Shown: piece by piece, positions 2,106 to 56,457 of the stretch | Position numbering within the stretch: position 1 is the stretch's first letter | Layout: the number at the start of each line of letters is the position of its first letter | Source of the DNA: Escherichia coli 042 | GTDB taxonomy: Bacteria; Pseudomonadota; Gammaproteobacteria; Enterobacterales; Enterobacteriaceae | Direction: 5' to 3' (one strand) | Assembly (NCBI RefSeq): GCF_000027125.1 | Contig: NC_017626.1 | DNA length: 64,000 nt | Position numbers and translations under genes: made by a program | Notes under the pieces: generated by a model | Database searches by the model: none | Told to the model about the DNA's origin: nothing | Seen by the model: the letters and a program-made list of their open reading frames with translations, nothing else

Positions 2106-3308
2106 ATGACGCAATACTCCTCTCTCCTTCGTGGTCTTGCAGCGGGTTCTGCATTTTTATTCCTTTTTGCCCCAACGGCATTCGCGGCGGAACAAACCGT
2201 TGAAGCGCCGAGCGTGGATGCGCGTGCATGGATTTTAATGGATTACGCCAGCGGTAAAGTGCTGGCAGAAGGCAATGCGGATGAGAAACTGGATCCCGCG
2301 AGCCTGACTAAAATCATGACCAGCTATGTGGTTGGGCAGGCGCTTAAGGCCGATAAGATTAAACTCACCGATATGGTGACGGTCGGTAAAGATGCCTGGG
2401 CGACGGGAAATCCGGCACTGCGTGGTTCATCGGTAATGTTCCTTAAACCGGGCGATCAGGTTTCGGTGGCAGACCTGAACAAAGGTGTGATTATCCAGTC
2501 CGGTAATGACGCCTGTATTGCGCTGGCCGATTACGTTGCCGGGAGCCAGGAGTCATTTATTGGTCTGATGAATGGTTATGCCAAAAAACTGGGTCTGACC
2601 AACACTACCTTCCAGACGGTGCACGGTCTGGATGCGCCAGGGCAGTTCAGTACCGCGCGCGATATGGCATTGCTGGGTAAAGCATTGATCCACGATGTGC
2701 CGGAAGAGTATGCCATTCATAAAGAGAAAGAGTTCACCTTCAACAAAATTCGTCAGCCTAACCGTAACCGTCTGCTGTGGAGCAGCAATCTGAATGTTGA
2801 TGGCATGAAGACAGGAACCACGGCAGGCGCGGGATATAATCTGGTTGCTTCGGCTACCCAGGGCGATATGCGTTTGATCTCCGTAGTACTGGGTGCGAAA
2901 ACTGACCGTATCCGTTTTAATGAGTCTGAGAAATTATTGACCTGGGGTTTCCGCTTCTTTGAAACCGTGACGCCAATTAAACCTGATGCCACCTTTGTGA
3001 CTCAGCGCGTCTGGTTTGGTGATAAGAGCGAAGTGAATCTCGGGGCAGGTGAAGCGGGCTCAGTGACCATACCGCGTGGGCAGCTGAAAAACCTGAAAGC
3101 GAGTTATACGTTAACGGAACCGCAGCTTACCGCACCGCTGAAAAAAGGTCAGGTTGTCGGGACCATTGATTTCCAGCTTAACGGTAAATCCATTGAGCAG
3201 CGTCCGCTGATCGTGATGGAAAATGTGGAAGAGGGCGGATTCTTTGGTCGGATGTGGGATTTCGTTATGATGAAATTCCATCAGTGGTTCGGCAGCTGGT
3301 TCTCTTAA
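2106..3308 (+). CDS. dacC: D-alanyl-D-alanine carboxypeptidase PBP6
   Basis: SxxK motif (SLTKIMT), signal peptide; start at MTQYSS within ORF 2085..3308. Confidence 0.92.
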
Positions 3309-3351
3309 TCTTCTGATAACCGGATGGCGCGAAACGTCATCCGGTTATACG

Positions 3352-4113
3352 TCATTGATACATCAACTTAATACGCTGCGTCTGCGCGTACTTCACATAC
3401 TCATCTTCCGGGCAACAATCGCTCACTACAATATCAAATCGTTTCAGGTCACCCATGCGTGCCGGACGCACCTTGCCAAATTTACTGTGGTCGACAACCA
3501 GCACATGCTTTTGCGCCATCGACATGGCCCAGTGTTTTACCGGCAACTCTTCAAGATTAAAACAGGTAGCTCCCTTACTGACATGCACCCCTGCCGCGGA
3601 ATAAAAAGCGATATCCGGGCAAAAATTATTCAGCGTTTGCTGAAAATCGATGGGTTTGAAAATGGCGTTGCTGGCGTGAAATTCACCACCGCAAAGAAAC
3701 GCGCGGCAATGAGGTTTCTCTTTCAGTGCCAGAAAGGTATTTAGCGAATAACAAACGGCGGTAAAGGGGATTTCATTATCAATTGCTTCAATAATCCACG
3801 GCGTGGTGGTGCCACAGTCAAAAAAGAGGGTCTGATCGGGTTCTACCAGCGTCGCAGCCAGTTTTGCCGCCCGGCGTTTTTCTTCCACCAGGCGGGATTT
3901 TTGATCGCTTAACAGGTAATGGCTGGCGCTGCGCGGTTCCAGAACAATATAGCCGCCGAGCAAAACGACGGGCGCACTGTGGTTGTTCAGATCGCGACGA
4001 ATCGTCATCTCCGAAACCCCAAGCAAGGCGGCGGCGTCTTTAAGATGTAACTTATCGCTGCGTTTTAATTCTTGCAGCAGCTGCCCGATACGCTCTTCGC
4101 GACGTGTTTCCAT
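3352..4113 (-). CDS. deoR: deoxyribose operon repressor DeoR
   Basis: 253-aa ORF with N-terminal HTH; K-12 synteny. Confidence 0.88.
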   Translation of the reverse strand: METRREERIGQLLQELKRSDKLHLKDAAALLGVSEMTIRRDLNNHSAPVVLLGGYIVLEPRSASHYLLSDQKSRLVEEKRRAAKLAATLVEPDQTLFFDCGTTTPWIIEAIDNEIPFTAVCYSLNTFLALKEKPHCRAFLCGGEFHASNAIFKPIDFQQTLNNFCPDIAFYSAAGVHVSKGATCFNLEELPVKHWAMSMAQKHVLVVDHSKFGKVRPARMGDLKRFDIVVSDCCPEDEYVKYAQTQRIKLMYQ

Positions 4114-4170
4114 AATCCCTCTGAATAGTTATTGAAGCGAGCCGCTCAATACTACACTTTTTAGCAGAGA

Positions 4171-4767
4171 TCAGTCACGCACCCAGCCTTTGCGGATCGG
4201 TAATGCAAAACAGAAGCGATACCACGATTGCAGACGTTGATAGAGTTTATGCCCAAACGCTTGCCAGATAATCTGAGCGCTAAGGCAGCCAATCATACCT
4301 GCCAGCAATCCACCGAGCATATCCAGCGGCCAGTGGACGCCAAGATAAACGCGCGACCAGGCAATGACGACGGCCAGCACCATTAAAAGTGAGCCGGACC
4401 ACAGGCGATGCCAGCATAAAAATGCCAGTGCAAAGGTGAAAATCACCGTACCGTGATCGCTCGGGAATGAGTCATCCGCCGCATGATGCAGGAAGTTATA
4501 GCCGATATTTTCGACAAAGGGTCGGTCGTGCGGAAAAAGATGCCCCATCGTCCAGGACACAAACAGGCTGACCGCCAGCGCGATAGCGATTTTTATCACC
4601 AGTTGCCGTTGTGCTGTAAGCCCCCACAACCAAAGTACTGCGGCCAGCAGCGGCACCACGGTAATCAAATCTTTTGCAATAAAAATCGCCAACGAGATCA
4701 TCCACGGCGCAGAGTCTGGCGTCGCGTTAATAAGAGAGAATAGAGAGAGATTCAAATTTTCCAGCAT
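4171..4767 (-). CDS. ybjG: undecaprenyl-diphosphate phosphatase (PAP2 family)
   Basis: Membrane ORF; start trimmed to MLENLN. Confidence 0.85.
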   Translation of the reverse strand: MLENLNLSLFSLINATPDSAPWMISLAIFIAKDLITVVPLLAAVLWLWGLTAQRQLVIKIAIALAVSLFVSWTMGHLFPHDRPFVENIGYNFLHHAADDSFPSDHGTVIFTFALAFLCWHRLWSGSLLMVLAVVIAWSRVYLGVHWPLDMLGGLLAGMIGCLSAQIIWQAFGHKLYQRLQSWYRFCFALPIRKGWVRD

Positions 4768-9475: not shown

Positions 9476-9511
9476 GTGCAAAAAAATTTCATTTTCAGGG
9501 CAACTTCAGTT

Positions 9512-11873: not shown

Positions 11874-12131
11874 TCAGGCGTCCAGATTCTCTTTCACCCA
11901 TGCAGCAAAATCGGTATAGCCGCCGATATGTTGCTGATCGACAAAAATCTGCGGCACGGTTTCTACGGGTTTACCTGCCTTTTGTTGTAGATCTTCTTTA
12001 GTGATCCCTTCCGCACGAATATCAACATACTGATACTGAAAATCATCGCGTTCATTGCTCAATTTCTCAGCCAGATCTTTTGCACGCACACAGTAAGGGC
12101 AACCCGGACGACCAAAAATAACGGTTTGCAT
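11874..12131 (-). CDS. grxA: glutaredoxin 1
   Basis: CPYC active-site motif; start MQTVIFGRPGCPYC. Confidence 0.92.
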   Translation of the reverse strand: MQTVIFGRPGCPYCVRAKDLAEKLSNERDDFQYQYVDIRAEGITKEDLQQKAGKPVETVPQIFVDQQHIGGYTDFAAWVKENLDA

Positions 12132-12290
12132 TATTTCTCTCCTCATAGATTTATGCCTGTAATGATCACGCTAAAATGTATTCGCTGAAAGTAGGTTTAA
12201 CCTGTTGCATTAATTGCTAAAAGCTATAACTGTTAAACACAATACAGTGAAAAGTTTTAGACTGAAGGCTCACTTTGCAGAGGGAAGCGT

Positions 12291-19357: not shown

Positions 19358-19846
19358 ATGGAAGACGAAACGTTGGGATTTTTTAAGAAAACATCTTCAT
19401 CTCATGCTCGCCTGAATGTGCCTGCGCTGGTGCAGGTGGCGGCGCTCGCCATTATTATGATCCGTGGCCTCGACGTGCTGATGATTTTCAATACGCTGGG
19501 CGTGCGCGGTATTGGCGAGTTCATTCATCGCAGCGTACAAACCTGGAGTTTAACGCTGGTCTTTTTAAGCAGTCTGGTGTTGGTTTTTATTGAGATCTGG
19601 TGTGCGTTTTCACTGGTGAAAGGGCGTCGCTGGGCGCGCTGGCTGTATCTGTTGACACAAATCACGGCCGCAAGTTACTTGTGGGCGGCTTCGCTGGGGT
19701 ATGGTTATCCGGAGCTGTTCAGCATTCCCGGTGAATCAAAACGTGAAATCTTCCATAGCCTGATGCTGCAGAAGCTGCCGGATATGCTCATCCTGATGCT
19801 GCTGTTCGTTCCCTCGACCAGTCGGCGGTTCTTCCAGTTGCAATAA
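19358..19846 (+). CDS. ybjO: inner membrane protein YbjO
   Basis: 162-aa membrane ORF; synteny. Confidence 0.8.
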   Translation: MEDETLGFFKKTSSSHARLNVPALVQVAALAIIMIRGLDVLMIFNTLGVRGIGEFIHRSVQTWSLTLVFLSSLVLVFIEIWCAFSLVKGRRWARWLYLLTQITAASYLWAASLGYGYPELFSIPGESKREIFHSLMLQKLPDMLILMLLFVPSTSRRFFQLQ

Positions 19847-34817: not shown

Positions 34818-35786
34818 TTATGCGAGAACCAAATCTCCCTGCGGATGGCAGGAGCAGGCCAGCACGTAACCTTCAGCGATTTCGGCGTTGGTCAGCGTCA
34901 TTGTGCTGCTCACCGTATATTCACCGGAAACCACTTTCGTCTTACAGCAGCCGCAAACACCTGCACGGCAGGCGGCGACAACCGGAACTTTATTGCTTTC
35001 CAGCGCCTCCAGTAGCGTGGTGCCAACCGAGGCGTAAAATTCTCGTGCCGGTTGCAGTTTGGTGAATTTCAGACCGCTGGTCGCCGCTTCCGCTACTGGG
35101 GTGAAGAATTTCTCTTTAAAGAAACGCGTCACGCCGAGCGCTTTCACTTCCTGCTCTACCCAATCCATATACGGAGCCGGGCCACAGGTCATCACGGTAC
35201 GTGAAGCTAAGTCAGGGACACCTGCCAGCAGTTCGCGAGTGAGACGACCAGCGATAAAGCCTTCGGTAACGTTATTTTCTGCCACCAGCGTCACCGGATA
35301 GTTGCGCCACTCATCGGCGAAAATAACATCCTGCGGCGAACGCACGTTGTAGATCACCTGCACATCGGCCTGCGGACGGTTCTTCGCCAGCCAGCGACGC
35401 ATCGACATAATCGGCGTGACGCCGCAGCCTGCCGCCAGCAACAGGAATTTATCTTCTGCTTTATCGTCGCAGGTAAATTCCCCCATCGCGTCCGAAAGCC
35501 AGAGATAATCACCGCGTTTTACATCGCGCGTCAGCCACTGGGAGCCGACACCGTCATCAATCTGCCGCACAGTCAGGGTGATGTATTCACTCACGCCTGG
35601 CGTGGAGGAAATGGTGTAAGCACGCAGCGTTTCCGCTGAGTTTCGCACGCTGACCAGTGCATATTGCCCGGCGCGATATGGGTAGTAATCGTGGCAAATC
35701 AGGGAAATCGTCCACACATCCGGCGTTTCTTGCGTAATGTGATGAACCTGCATCCGCCACGGGCATTGATTCGTTGGCATCGTCAT
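34818..35786 (-). CDS. hcr: NADH oxidoreductase for hybrid-cluster protein
   Basis: C-terminal 2Fe-2S ferredoxin Cys cluster and FNR-like reductase fold. Confidence 0.9.
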   Translation of the reverse strand: MTMPTNQCPWRMQVHHITQETPDVWTISLICHDYYPYRAGQYALVSVRNSAETLRAYTISSTPGVSEYITLTVRQIDDGVGSQWLTRDVKRGDYLWLSDAMGEFTCDDKAEDKFLLLAAGCGVTPIMSMRRWLAKNRPQADVQVIYNVRSPQDVIFADEWRNYPVTLVAENNVTEGFIAGRLTRELLAGVPDLASRTVMTCGPAPYMDWVEQEVKALGVTRFFKEKFFTPVAEAATSGLKFTKLQPAREFYASVGTTLLEALESNKVPVVAACRAGVCGCCKTKVVSGEYTVSSTMTLTNAEIAEGYVLACSCHPQGDLVLA

Positions 35787-35797
35787 CGACAAACTCC

Positions 35798-37450
35798 TTA
35801 CGCGCTCAACAGTTGCTTCATGTCTTCTTCAACAGTGGTGATAGAACGCAGGCCGAATTTCTCGTTCAGCACCGCCAGCAGATCTGGTGTCAGGAAACCT
35901 GGTGCAGTCGGGCCGGTGACGATATTTTTCACACCCAGAGAAAGCAGTGTCAGCAGAATGACAATCGCTTTCTGTTCAAACCAGGAGAGCACCAGTGACA
36001 GCGGCAGATCGTTGACACCGCAGCCCAGTTTTTCTGCCAGCGTTACCGCCAGAATAATTGCTGAGTAAGCATCGTTACACTGACCAGCATCCACCAGACG
36101 CGGCAGACCTTCGATATCGCCAAACTCGAGTTTGTTAAAGCGATATTTACCACAGGCGAGAGTCAGGATCAGACAGTCATCCGGCACGCTGGTGGCGAAA
36201 TCGGTGAAGTAGTGACGCTCGCCGCGTGCGCCGTCACAGCCGCCAAGCAGGAAGATATGACGCAGTTTTTCACGGCTCACCAGATCAATCAGCGTATCGG
36301 CTGCGCCAAGCAGTGTCTGGCGACCAAAGCCCACGGTGATCAGGTGCGGAATTTCGCTGTACGGGAAGCCCGCCATCTGTTGCGCCTGGGCAATGACCGC
36401 AGAGAAATCTTCGCCATCCAGATGACGCACACCCGGCCAGCCAACGATGCTGCGGGTCCAGATACGATCGTCATAAGCGCCTACGGTTGGGTCGATGATG
36501 CAGTTCGAGGTCATCACGATGGGGCCAGGGAAACGAGCGAACTCCACTTGCTGATTCTGCCAGCCGCTGCCGTAGTTACCGACCAGATGCTTGAATTTAC
36601 GCAGCTCCGGGTAGCCATGCGCAGGCAGCATTTCACCGTGGGTGTAGACATTAACGCCCGTGCCTTCGGTCTGTTCCAGCAGGTTGTAGAGATCTTTGAG
36701 ATCGTGACCGGAAATCAGAATGCATTTACCTGCCGTCGCTTTGACGTTGACCTGGGTTGGGGTCGGGTGACCGTATTTACCGGTTTCGCCTGCGTCCAGA
36801 ATGCTCATCACTTTGAAGTTCATCTGGCCGATTTCCATTGAACACTCAAGAAGCGCGTTCATATCGGCAGGCCAGGTTCCCAGCCACGCCATGATTTTAT
36901 GGTACTGGGCATAAATATCGTTGTCGTATTGACCGAGAACATGCGCGTGTTCCATATAGGCCGCCGCACCTTTCAGGCCATACAGGCACAGCAGGCGCAG
37001 GCCGAGAATGTTTTCGCCAATCGCCGCTTTATCTTTGTTAGGGGTAAATTCTGCTGCCTGACGTTGCAGCTCGCCGAGATCATCGCTCACCAGTTGCAGG
37101 TCAGCCATCGGGTTATCGACGCGGGCGTTGGCATCTACAGCCAGGCATTGTGCTTTCAGCGCCTCGCGCAGGGCAATCGCTTCACGAGCGTAGCCGACTA
37201 TACGCGGAGAATCGAAGTTAACGTTGGTCAGGGTTGAGAAAAATGCGCGTGGCGCAAAGCTGTCTACATCGTGGTTGATGATGCCGTATTCACGCGCTTT
37301 TACCGCCCAGGCCGAAAGCCCTTGCAGCGCCGCGATGAGTAAATCCTGAAGGTCAGAGGTTTCCGCCGTTTTACCACACATCCCCTGCGCGTATGAGCAG
37401 CCGTTTCCTGCCGGAGTACGGATAGTTTGTTCACATTGCACACAAAACAT
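35798..37450 (-). CDS. hcp: hybrid-cluster protein (hydroxylamine reductase)
   Basis: N-terminal MFCVQCEQT Cys motif. Confidence 0.93.
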
Positions 37451-37593
37451 GATCACACCTTTTAAAGTTATATTTAATATACATGTTTAAGGTTAAGACG
37501 CTTAACGCAGGGATAAAAGGGATTTTTCATGCAACTTTAAGGGAGATTGATTTAGCGCAATTTTGGCGGCAGGGATCTACCGCCAGAGAGGTA

Positions 37594-38493
37594 TTACGCG
37601 GAAAAAAAGGCGATGAGGATCGGCACTAACAGGCTAAGAATAAAACCGTGAACAATCGCCGCCGGGACCATATCCAGCCCGCCAGTACGTTGAAGAACGG
37701 GCAGGGTGAAATCCATCGACGTGGCACCGCATAAGCCCAGTGCAGTAGAGCGGCTGCGGCGAATCAGCCCAGGGATCAACATAATAGCAATCAGCTCACG
37801 GGCCAGATCATTAAAAAACGCCGCGCTCCCGATTACCGGACCAAAAGATTCGGTCAATAAAATACCGGAAAGAGAATACCAGCCGAAACCGGAGGCCATT
37901 GCCAGCGCGGTATTGATGGGAAGATCAAGAATAAAGGCGTTAATTAAACCACCAATTAATGAACTGGCAATCACCACCACGGCGACAATCATTCCCCGGC
38001 GATTAAGGACAATCTGCTTTAAGGTCATGCCATTATTGCGCAACTGAATACCGACGAGGAAAAGTAGCAGAATTAAGGTGTATTCACTGGCTTCGGTCGC
38101 ATGTTGTAAGAAAGCCAGTCCACTCAGGCCAATGGCAAAACCAATCACTACTACGCCGCACAGTTTTAGCGACTCCAGCGCCATCGCAATACGCGACGGG
38201 AGTTTTTCTTGCTGGTGGTGATTGCGCCACGGCAGACCGCGCTCCAGCCACAACAACGCAATAATATTGCAGAGTAAAATAATGGTAATGCTGACGGCGG
38301 AATAATGCAGAATCGCCAACAGGTTACTGGCGAGGTTATCGAGAAACGCCAGACTGATACCCATAAAAAAGAGAATGAGGTAAACCATCCAACTTAATAG
38401 CTGATTAATAACTTTTAATGCAGCTTTTTGGCGAAGCGGAATGAGGTAACCCACAATCAGGGGAACCAGAATGATTAACAGCCCAGAAAACAT
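37594..38493 (-). CDS. lysO: lysine exporter LysO (YbjE)
   Basis: Polytopic membrane ORF; start MFSGLLIIL. Confidence 0.85.
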   Translation of the reverse strand: MFSGLLIILVPLIVGYLIPLRQKAALKVINQLLSWMVYLILFFMGISLAFLDNLASNLLAILHYSAVSITIILLCNIIALLWLERGLPWRNHHQQEKLPSRIAMALESLKLCGVVVIGFAIGLSGLAFLQHATEASEYTLILLLFLVGIQLRNNGMTLKQIVLNRRGMIVAVVVIASSLIGGLINAFILDLPINTALAMASGFGWYSLSGILLTESFGPVIGSAAFFNDLARELIAIMLIPGLIRRSRSTALGLCGATSMDFTLPVLQRTGGLDMVPAAIVHGFILSLLVPILIAFFSA

Positions 38494-38936
38494 GAAAACC
38501 CAGTCCTTGCAAAGATGAAGTCGAAATGCGCGATGACACACTACTGAAAGCGGAAGGACGAGTAAAGTTGCAATTAAAAGGAAATGTTATGGATAAGGAT
38601 CGTTAGGGTATTCATTTTCATTTAAAGATATTCTTGCGCTTTAATTACAAACCGCACCGGTGTTGGTGGCGTCAAAATCGCCGAGGCGTTCCCTGAAGGC
38701 CGGGGCAGCCCACATGGATGTGGGCTGAGGGCGCGTTTTACAGGGATGTTACCTCGCGCCCGACCCGGTAGCCGCAAGGGATAAGTCGAGGGCACCGCGC
38801 AGCGGCGATTTTGTTCGCCAGAGCCCGGGGGTGCAGGGGGCGGCGGCGATTGGCCGCCCCCTGCGCGCTCCCTGCGCCAGTGACTATATGTGGCTTAACA
38901 CATCAAGGAGCGCAACAGGAAGATGAATCAATATAT

Positions 38937-39672: not shown

Positions 39673-40097
39673 ATCCACCTCAATTAAAAATTGACCCTGT
39701 GAAAAATATGGTCGTTTTATAGGGTCGTCGTAAAAAAGTGACGACGGAAATAATGCGCGGCTATTTTAAAAACGAAGGCAAATCATTCGCCAGATAAATA
39801 AATCCAGTAAATTTGATTTAGGGCAACAGCGGGTTGCCCCATATAGTCATTTGTCTGATTGACAGTGTAGTGCAAGCGAAAGATTTAATCCTTTAGGCGT
39901 AATAAAAAATAATTTATCATGCTAATTATTTGATTTTGTTGTTTTTGCAGGCTTATCAGCAAGAGGGAGTATAACGCGATTATTCGCTCATTTTTCAGAC
40001 ATTTGCCATGCTTAAATGTGATGTCATCACGTATTAGCATGGCCTTTCCCGTTATACTGCCAGCGTAAAGGATAAGTCACATATTTCTGGAGGGGAT

Positions 40098-46537: not shown

Positions 46538-46858
46538 ATGGGTAAAACGAACGACTGGCTGGACTTTGATCAACTGGCGGAAGAAAAAGTTCGCGACGCG
46601 CTAAAACCGCCATCTATGTATAAAGTGATATTAGTCAATGATGATTACACTCCGATGGAGTTTGTTATTGACGTGTTACAAAAATTCTTTTCTTATGATG
46701 TAGAACGTGCAACGCAATTGATGCTCGCTGTTCACTACCAGGGGAAGGCCATTTGCGGAGTCTTTACCGCCGAGGTTGCAGAAACCAAAGTGGCGATGGT
46801 GAACAAGTACGCGAGGGAGAATGAGCATCCATTGCTGTGTACGCTAGAAAAAGCCTGA
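46538..46858 (+). CDS. clpS: ClpA adaptor ClpS
   Basis: 106-aa ORF; recognised. Confidence 0.92.
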
Positions 46859-56029: not shown

Positions 56030-56457
56030 TCAAATTCTCCCGTCATTATCACCTCTGCTACTTAAATTTCCCGCTTTATAAGCCAATTAAATGATGAATA
56101 AACGCCTCTGGTAATGAATATCTGGCATGTTGTACTAAAAATCGATGTTTTGCTTTGACAATCCCCTGGTGTTTTGCGAAAACATTCGAGGAAGAAAAAA
56201 AAACAGTATTCTTATATGCGCATAACCATGCATGTAAATACCATGTTTACCGTGCTAGTGAAATCTACGTATGGCGTGGACAGACGCCATTCGTGATGTC
56301 GATAGCTGCCACAAGGCAACGGTCTTCTCACCGTAGACCCAGGCATTGCGCGCCGTGAATCTTCATGATTTCGGTCTATCGTGACGGGTAGCGACTCTGA
56401 ACAGTGATGTTTCAGGGTCAGACAGGAGTAGGGAAGGAATACAGAGAGACAATAATA

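Follow-up and report, generated by a model that had tools for sequence, protein, structure and literature searches.

Operators of the hcp-hcr promoter of Escherichia coli: a degenerate FNR site, an NsrR site over the start of transcription, and a perfect palindrome that is a coincidence

Which of the short sequences between lysO and hcp in Escherichia coli 042 are the operators that control hcp? A preliminary description, made by eye, had singled out two: an FNR-like half-palindrome, and a perfect inverted repeat closer to the gene that was put forward as the kind of NsrR or OxyR site to be expected of a promoter responsive to anaerobiosis and nitrosative stress. I followed both up in the window, that is, the whole stretch of 64,000 nucleotides that was analysed. 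The reading that I favour, at roughly nine chances in ten, is that the 143-nt lysO-hcp intergenic region is the known and multiply regulated hcp-hcr promoter, under the control of FNR, NsrR and probably NarL/NarP, and that the repeat is not one of its operators. The site boundaries given below rest on ChIP-level data, weight matrices and conservation, not on footprints.

The region is the lysO-hcp-hcr-poxB locus of E. coli. The gene hcp, for the hybrid cluster protein or hydroxylamine reductase, occupies 35798-37450 on the minus strand with its ATG at 37450. Its reading frame matches the hydroxylamine reductase/Hcp equivalogs of NCBIfam (NF003658, E = 2e-245; also TIGR01703), and with the annotation of E. 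coli in agreement, the gene and the strand had been called correctly from the start. The second gene of the operon, hcr (34818-35792, minus strand), encodes the NADH oxidoreductase partner of Hcp and matches the equivalog NF007964 at E = 9e-192 over residues 3-324; its true start probably lies two codons inside the reading frame. The frame that follows it matches PoxB. Of 5,426 complete E. coli genomes, 5,424 contain the DNA around the sites, annotated as lysO / hcp; a 160-nt promoter segment matches some of them without a difference and 3,592 of them at 99% identity or more. For comparison across species I used 78 orthologous hcp promoters from different species of Enterobacteriaceae, which together with the window make 79 sequences.

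Any operator has to be placed relative to the start of transcription, and this start has been mapped experimentally: Fig. S1 of Rodionov 2005 (PMC1274295) marks it at the T that follows AAACATG and precedes ATATT. In the window this is position 37481 on the minus strand, which leaves a 31-nt leader. Counted from +1 at 37481, the FNR site is centred at exactly -72.5, and Table 1 of Myers 2013 (PMC3688515) independently gives the same figure. Relative to the mapped start, the -10 hexamer would be TAACCT (37490-37495, minus strand, -14 to -9), in which TA..CT is invariant in 77 to 78 of the 78 species and mean identity is 0.915. I infer from spacing a putative and weak -35 hexamer, TTTTAT, 17 bp further upstream (37513-37518, minus strand); its first TTT is kept in 75 to 78 of the 78 species. 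A simple promoter and terminator scan of 37350-37700 called neither a consensus sigma-70 promoter nor a terminator, the former as expected for a promoter that depends on an activator. Myers 2013 (PMC3688515) describes hcp-hcr as lacking a sigma-70 ChIP peak and mentions a sigma-E-dependent site, so either the sigma-70 or the sigma-E holoenzyme may use the hcp promoter (37450-37600). In one strain, E. coli O169:H41 strain 2014EL-1345-2, a copy of IS421 (IS4-like; positions 3091-4498 of the locus L081) has inserted in the hcp promoter. The break lies near window position 37510 and separates the FNR site and the -35 region from the -10, an arrangement that should uncouple hcp from FNR activation in that strain.

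The FNR-like sequence TTGATTTAGCGCAA was found exactly where it had been reported, at 37547-37560; on the minus strand, that of hcp, it reads TTGCGCTAAATCAA. One of its halves is a perfect TTGAT and the other carries two mismatches, and as a consensus match it is unremarkable: the window contains 38 sequences within two mismatches of the bare consensus, against 32 +/- 5.6 expected. Counting consensus matches was therefore rejected as non-discriminating, and a matrix was built instead from 61 ChIP-supported sites in the Myers 2013 table (PMC3688515), with hcp excluded from the training. The hcp site scores 12.8 and ranks fourth among 63,987 positions in the window. The training sites range from 11.75 to 21.3, so that the score lies inside the range of validated sites, near its low end, and about 0.01 matches this good are expected per 143-nt intergenic region.

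A sceptic could hold that such a 14-mer is a chance resemblance and that the anaerobic induction of hcp is indirect, and could point to the 38 matches against 32 and to the low position of the score within the training range. What decides against this, and leaves it a negligible probability, is binding and conservation. Table S6 of Myers 2013 gives the identical 14-mer for hcp, with an FNR ChIP-seq peak in K-12, and the same paper counts hcp-hcr among the FNR-activated operons (PMC3688515). Identity of the 14-mer across the 78 species reaches 99.1%, where the 3' coding end of lysO has 63% and the promoter spacer 40%; all 79 promoters have their best FNR match here, at one and the same distance from the ATG. 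Its centre at -72.5 also falls on the helical face required for activation relative to the mapped +1. Mutation of TTGCG or of ATCAA within the site is reported to abolish anaerobic induction. The assignment to FNR is thus upheld by the published ChIP-seq peak, the conservation and the matrix rank together.

Three other positions in the window score slightly higher than the hcp site with the FNR matrix. The top match, at 13.76, is TTGATTTAGGGCAA (39813-39826) in the aqpZ-ybjD intergenic region, a single base away from the hcp site; in Myers 2013 (PMC3688515) this 14-mer is bound by FNR in ChIP-seq and has no assigned target operon. A 7-2-7 match of the NarL/NarP type lies 74 bp from it, at 39886-39901. 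I considered whether the hcp and aqpZ/ybjD 14-mers belong to a duplicated segment and rejected the idea, as their similarity ends at the 14-mer itself. The other two matches, 46625-46638 and 19652-19665 (13.4 and 13.3), have K-12 counterparts whose coordinates are absent from the part of Table S6 of Myers 2013 that was compared (PMC3688515). To the extent covered by that part of the table, matrix score alone does not identify bound sites.

Where, then, does NsrR bind? I built a second matrix from 25 sites in Table 4 of Mehta 2015 (PMC5320621), again with hcp excluded, and the best of 63,978 positions in the window, at a score of 25.9, is 37465-37487. This sequence, AAGTTATATTTAATATACATGTT, is an 11-1-11 inverted repeat centred at +6 and spanning -6 to +17. 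It is 95.9% conserved in the 78 species, and in 79 of 79 promoters it is the best NsrR match, with a score of at least 22.3 in each. The identical 23-mer lies under the NsrR ChIP-seq peak at hcp in strain CFT073 (Mehta 2015, Tables 2 and 4), with the summit 22 bp upstream of the hcp start codon (PMC5320621), and the core of the site had been predicted in Table S2 of Rodionov 2005 (PMC1274295). In an nsrR mutant of Salmonella, hcp mRNA rises 284-fold (PMC2884951), and the hcp promoter serves as an NsrR-dependent NO reporter (PMC9052748). The sequence at 37465-37487 is a real, NO-responsive NsrR operator.

The inverted repeat GTTAAG-ACG-CTTAAC exists, but one base away from where it had been placed. 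Its true position is 37492-37506 (-25 to -11, centre -18), whereas 37491-37505 reads GGTTAAGACGCTTAA. The very AT-rich stretch that was said to enclose it is also real (37460-37490, 90% A+T); the repeat sits beside it and not within it. That stretch is the true NsrR operator, which lies 5 bp downstream of the repeat. The preliminary description had itself proposed that matrix scans and footprints placing the sites at other coordinates should count against it, and the matrix scans and the ChIP data do locate the site elsewhere, at 37465-37487. Over the repeat itself, no overlapping 23-mer scores above 0 with the NsrR matrix, and no 11-mer half-site within it scores above 6.

Could the repeat nevertheless be an NsrR- or OxyR-type operator of hcp? 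It is a perfect palindrome with 6-bp arms over the -10 region, where a repressor might plausibly bind, and it is intact in all E. coli alleles examined, divergent ones included. Nevertheless, the proposal is very improbable. Where the true site scores 25.9 with the NsrR matrix, the 23-mers that overlap the repeat reach at most 0. The complete sequence GTTAAG...CTTAAC is present in none of the 78 orthologous promoters, although repression by NsrR is conserved, as the Salmonella mutant attests. Across the 78 species the upstream arm and loop show 26.4% identity, the random level; the downstream arm, CTTAAC, is 77.8% identical only because it overlaps the -10. Indeed the repeat consists of promoter spacer together with four -10 bases, the TAAC of TAACCT, which CTTAAC includes.

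Nor is a palindrome of this kind a rarity. Perfect repeats with 6-nt arms and a 3-nt loop number 13 in the window, compared with 15.6 expected under an independent-base model and 17.5 +/- 4.3 under a first-order Markov model, and a perfect 6-nt-arm repeat with a loop of 0 to 10 arises in 28% of shuffles of the 143-nt intergenic region. Folded as a hairpin the repeat yields -2.4 kcal/mol, which 16 of 200 shuffles match or beat.

The OxyR half of the proposal was examined with the classical consensus, four ATAG-type elements at 10-bp spacing (ATAGnTnnnAnCTAT-N7-ATAGnTnnnAnCTAT), scanned as 37-mers. The top match in the window, at 17 of 20, is 12191-12227, 60 to 96 bp upstream of grxA (11874-12131, minus strand), and it serves as a positive control. 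The gene grxA is a classic OxyR target, and I take 12191-12227 to be its known OxyR site. By comparison, the 37-mers that cover most of the repeat (37457-37493 and 37466-37502) reach only 10 to 11 of 20, a level attained at 195 to 770 positions of the window. The best match in the hcp promoter, at 13 of 20, is 37448-37484, which lies over the leader and the start codon (+1 to +34) and excludes the repeat. Judged by its letters, the repeat is not a canonical OxyR site. OxyR-dependent regulation of hcp has reportedly been described, by Almeida in 2006 and by Seth in 2012, and an OxyR site elsewhere in the hcp promoter is conceivable. The work of Seth 2012 is summarised in PMC8115020.

Alternatively, the repeat could have arisen recently, in Escherichia only, as a binding site for a different regulator, or it could be a structural feature by which promoter melting is tuned. 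Its position in the spacer and the -10 is one where DNA structure can matter; divergent E. coli alleles carry it, and E. whittamii very nearly does. Yet its retention within E. coli says nothing, since sequences so closely related share 97-100% identity over the entire promoter. One arm is already altered in E. whittamii, and Salmonella and Klebsiella lack the repeat. Add to this the weak hairpin, the chance-level count and the lack of any known motif recognised in the repeat, and this idea also has very little going for it, if a shade more than an NsrR or OxyR operator. The repeat is a coincidental palindrome, put together from unconstrained spacer and the TAAC of the -10, and not an operator.

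A more serious question is whether +6 is the only place at which NsrR acts. A second NsrR-like 23-mer, AAGTTGCATGA-A-AAATCCCTTTT on the minus strand, occupies 37515-37537 (centre -45), with the FNR site on one side and the -35 on the other. It ranks second in the whole window, and its score of 18.0 is inside the training range of 12 to 32; the same aligned position is the second-best NsrR match in most species, reaching up to 25.2, and falls inside the training range in 30 of 79 promoters. Its TTG core is conserved in 71 to 78 of the 78 species, and the element is conserved in Yersinia and Erwinia also (Rodionov 2005, Fig. S1, PMC1274295). CFT073 and the divergent alleles p11B and Z247 have AAGTTGCATTA in place of the AAGTTGCATGA of the window, and Mehta 2015 (PMC5320621) names the half-site AAGTTGCATTA among the possible NsrR motifs of the CFT073 hcp peak and reports that single 11-mers bind NsrR. 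As the main NsrR operator, AAGTTGCATGAAAAATCCCTTTT at -45 was rejected, Table S2 of Rodionov 2005 and Mehta 2015 both pointing to +6.

That 37515-37537 works alongside +6, as a second functional site or as a single 11-bp half-site, is a possibility I take seriously and still consider doubtful. In the right half the conserved form is AAA..CCTTTT, whose invariant C stands at a position occupied by A in NsrR sites; this suggests that the -35 region or an A-tract, and not an NsrR half-site, imposes the constraint. Enterobacter and Leclercia have lost the left half, and in Salmonella it is lost or degraded, and yet there NsrR represses hcp by the 284-fold factor given above (PMC2884951). The ChIP-seq summit, too, at -22 from the ATG, is over the +6 site (PMC5320621). 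If the second operator does exist, NsrR at -45 would be an anti-activator, standing in the way of FNR at -72.5 as it recruits RNA polymerase. The -45 element would then be a lineage-variable operator additional to the core-promoter block at +6, and the stringency of hcp repression would be different in species that have lost the left half-site (Salmonella, Enterobacter and Leclercia). Chismon et al. 2010 may already have described a second NsrR operator at -45.

The NsrR matrix marks a few other places in the window. The fourth-ranked match, a 23-mer at 38565-38587 with a score of 15.4, is some 24 bp upstream of where the lysO reading frame starts. It has TAAAGTTGCA in common with the -45 element of hcp, in inverted orientation, so that the two copies flank lysO. 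Its conservation is not broad: only 9 of 75 species reach the threshold, most of them Citrobacter and one of them E. whittamii. The match at 56127-56149 is identical to the trxB site of CFT073, itself part of the training set, and another at 9484-9506 (score 17.0) adjoins a gene.

At the far end of the promoter, inverted heptamers of the NarL/NarP 7-2-7 type, TACCTCT-CT-GGCGGTA on the minus strand, occupy 37578-37593 with their centre at -104.5. They differ from TACYYMT-N2-AKRRGTA at two positions, a degree of likeness found 6 times in the window against 2.7 expected, and they are 86% conserved in the 78 species. They make a candidate NarL/NarP site; Chismon et al. 2010 reportedly assigned one at hcp to -104.5. 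Candidate NarP sites upstream of hcp were also reported by Rodionov 2005 (PMC1274295). The same letters partly serve a second structure, a GC-rich hairpin (37564-37585, minus strand) directly after the lysO stop codon (37594-37596), whose upstream arm is also the promoter-proximal heptamer. It folds at -8.6 kcal/mol (z = -5.7; none of 200 shuffles folds as well), and both of its arms are conserved while the loop is variable. It is not a canonical intrinsic terminator, as no T-run follows it and the terminator scan is silent.

How might these sites work together? Under anoxia, FNR at TTGCGCTAAATCAA, centred at -72.5, would activate a promoter that has a good -10 and a poor -35. From the position of the site I infer activation of the class I type, presumably through the C-terminal domain of the alpha subunit of RNA polymerase. 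NsrR, lying across -6 to +17, would block initiation until NO damages its iron-sulfur cluster; this steric block is suggested by the position of the operator, the ChIP data and the use of the promoter as an NO reporter (PMC9052748). The putative NarL/NarP site at -104.5 would add an input from nitrate and nitrite. The sites with their matrix ranks and conservation, the ChIP occupancy in K-12 and CFT073, the activation by FNR and the repression by NsrR are established here or in the cited work, and everything of substance on the hcp promoter is already known.

The promoter is a textbook-level case of control by oxygen (FNR), nitrate and nitrite (NarL/NarP) and nitric oxide (NsrR), and it is in wide use for reporting NO inside cells; beyond annotation the present finding matters little. 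What the case does illustrate is the fate of operators called by eye: the right call was a degenerate and statistically unremarkable half-palindrome, and the wrong one was a perfect palindrome produced by chance. Placement with respect to the start site, weight matrices and conservation across species separate the true operator from the chance one cleanly.

Finally, it is worth setting the locus beside known systems. It is the same locus as the hcp-hcr promoter of E. coli K-12 (Filenko 2005/2007, Chismon 2010, Rodionov 2005, Myers 2013, Mehta 2015): the published sites are, letter for letter, the FNR 14-mer and the NsrR 23-mer of the window. Compared with the K-12 sequence in Fig. S1 of Rodionov 2005 (PMC1274295), a single base of the spacer is changed (CCCCGCG to CCCTGCG), and from the published promoter there is no difference of substance. 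Among NsrR operators, the +6 site has the same 11-1-11 architecture as those of ytfE, hmp and ygbA, and in the CFT073 list its score is second only to that of ytfE (PMC5320621). The repeat differs from these operators in its 6-bp arms and 3-bp gap and carries GTTAAG where they carry a half-site of the AAGATGCATTT type, so it is not a member of the family; with OxyR operators such as that of grxA it shares no feature. As for activation, the promoter resembles the class I FNR/CRP promoters, in which the activator sits near -61.5, -71.5 or -72.5 or further upstream at helical-turn intervals: its only FNR site is at -72.5, its -35 is poor, and the scan called no consensus sigma-70 promoter. Most FNR-activated promoters are instead of class II, with the site at -41.5 (19 of 23 in Myers 2013, PMC3688515), and hcp is one of the few that have theirs upstream.
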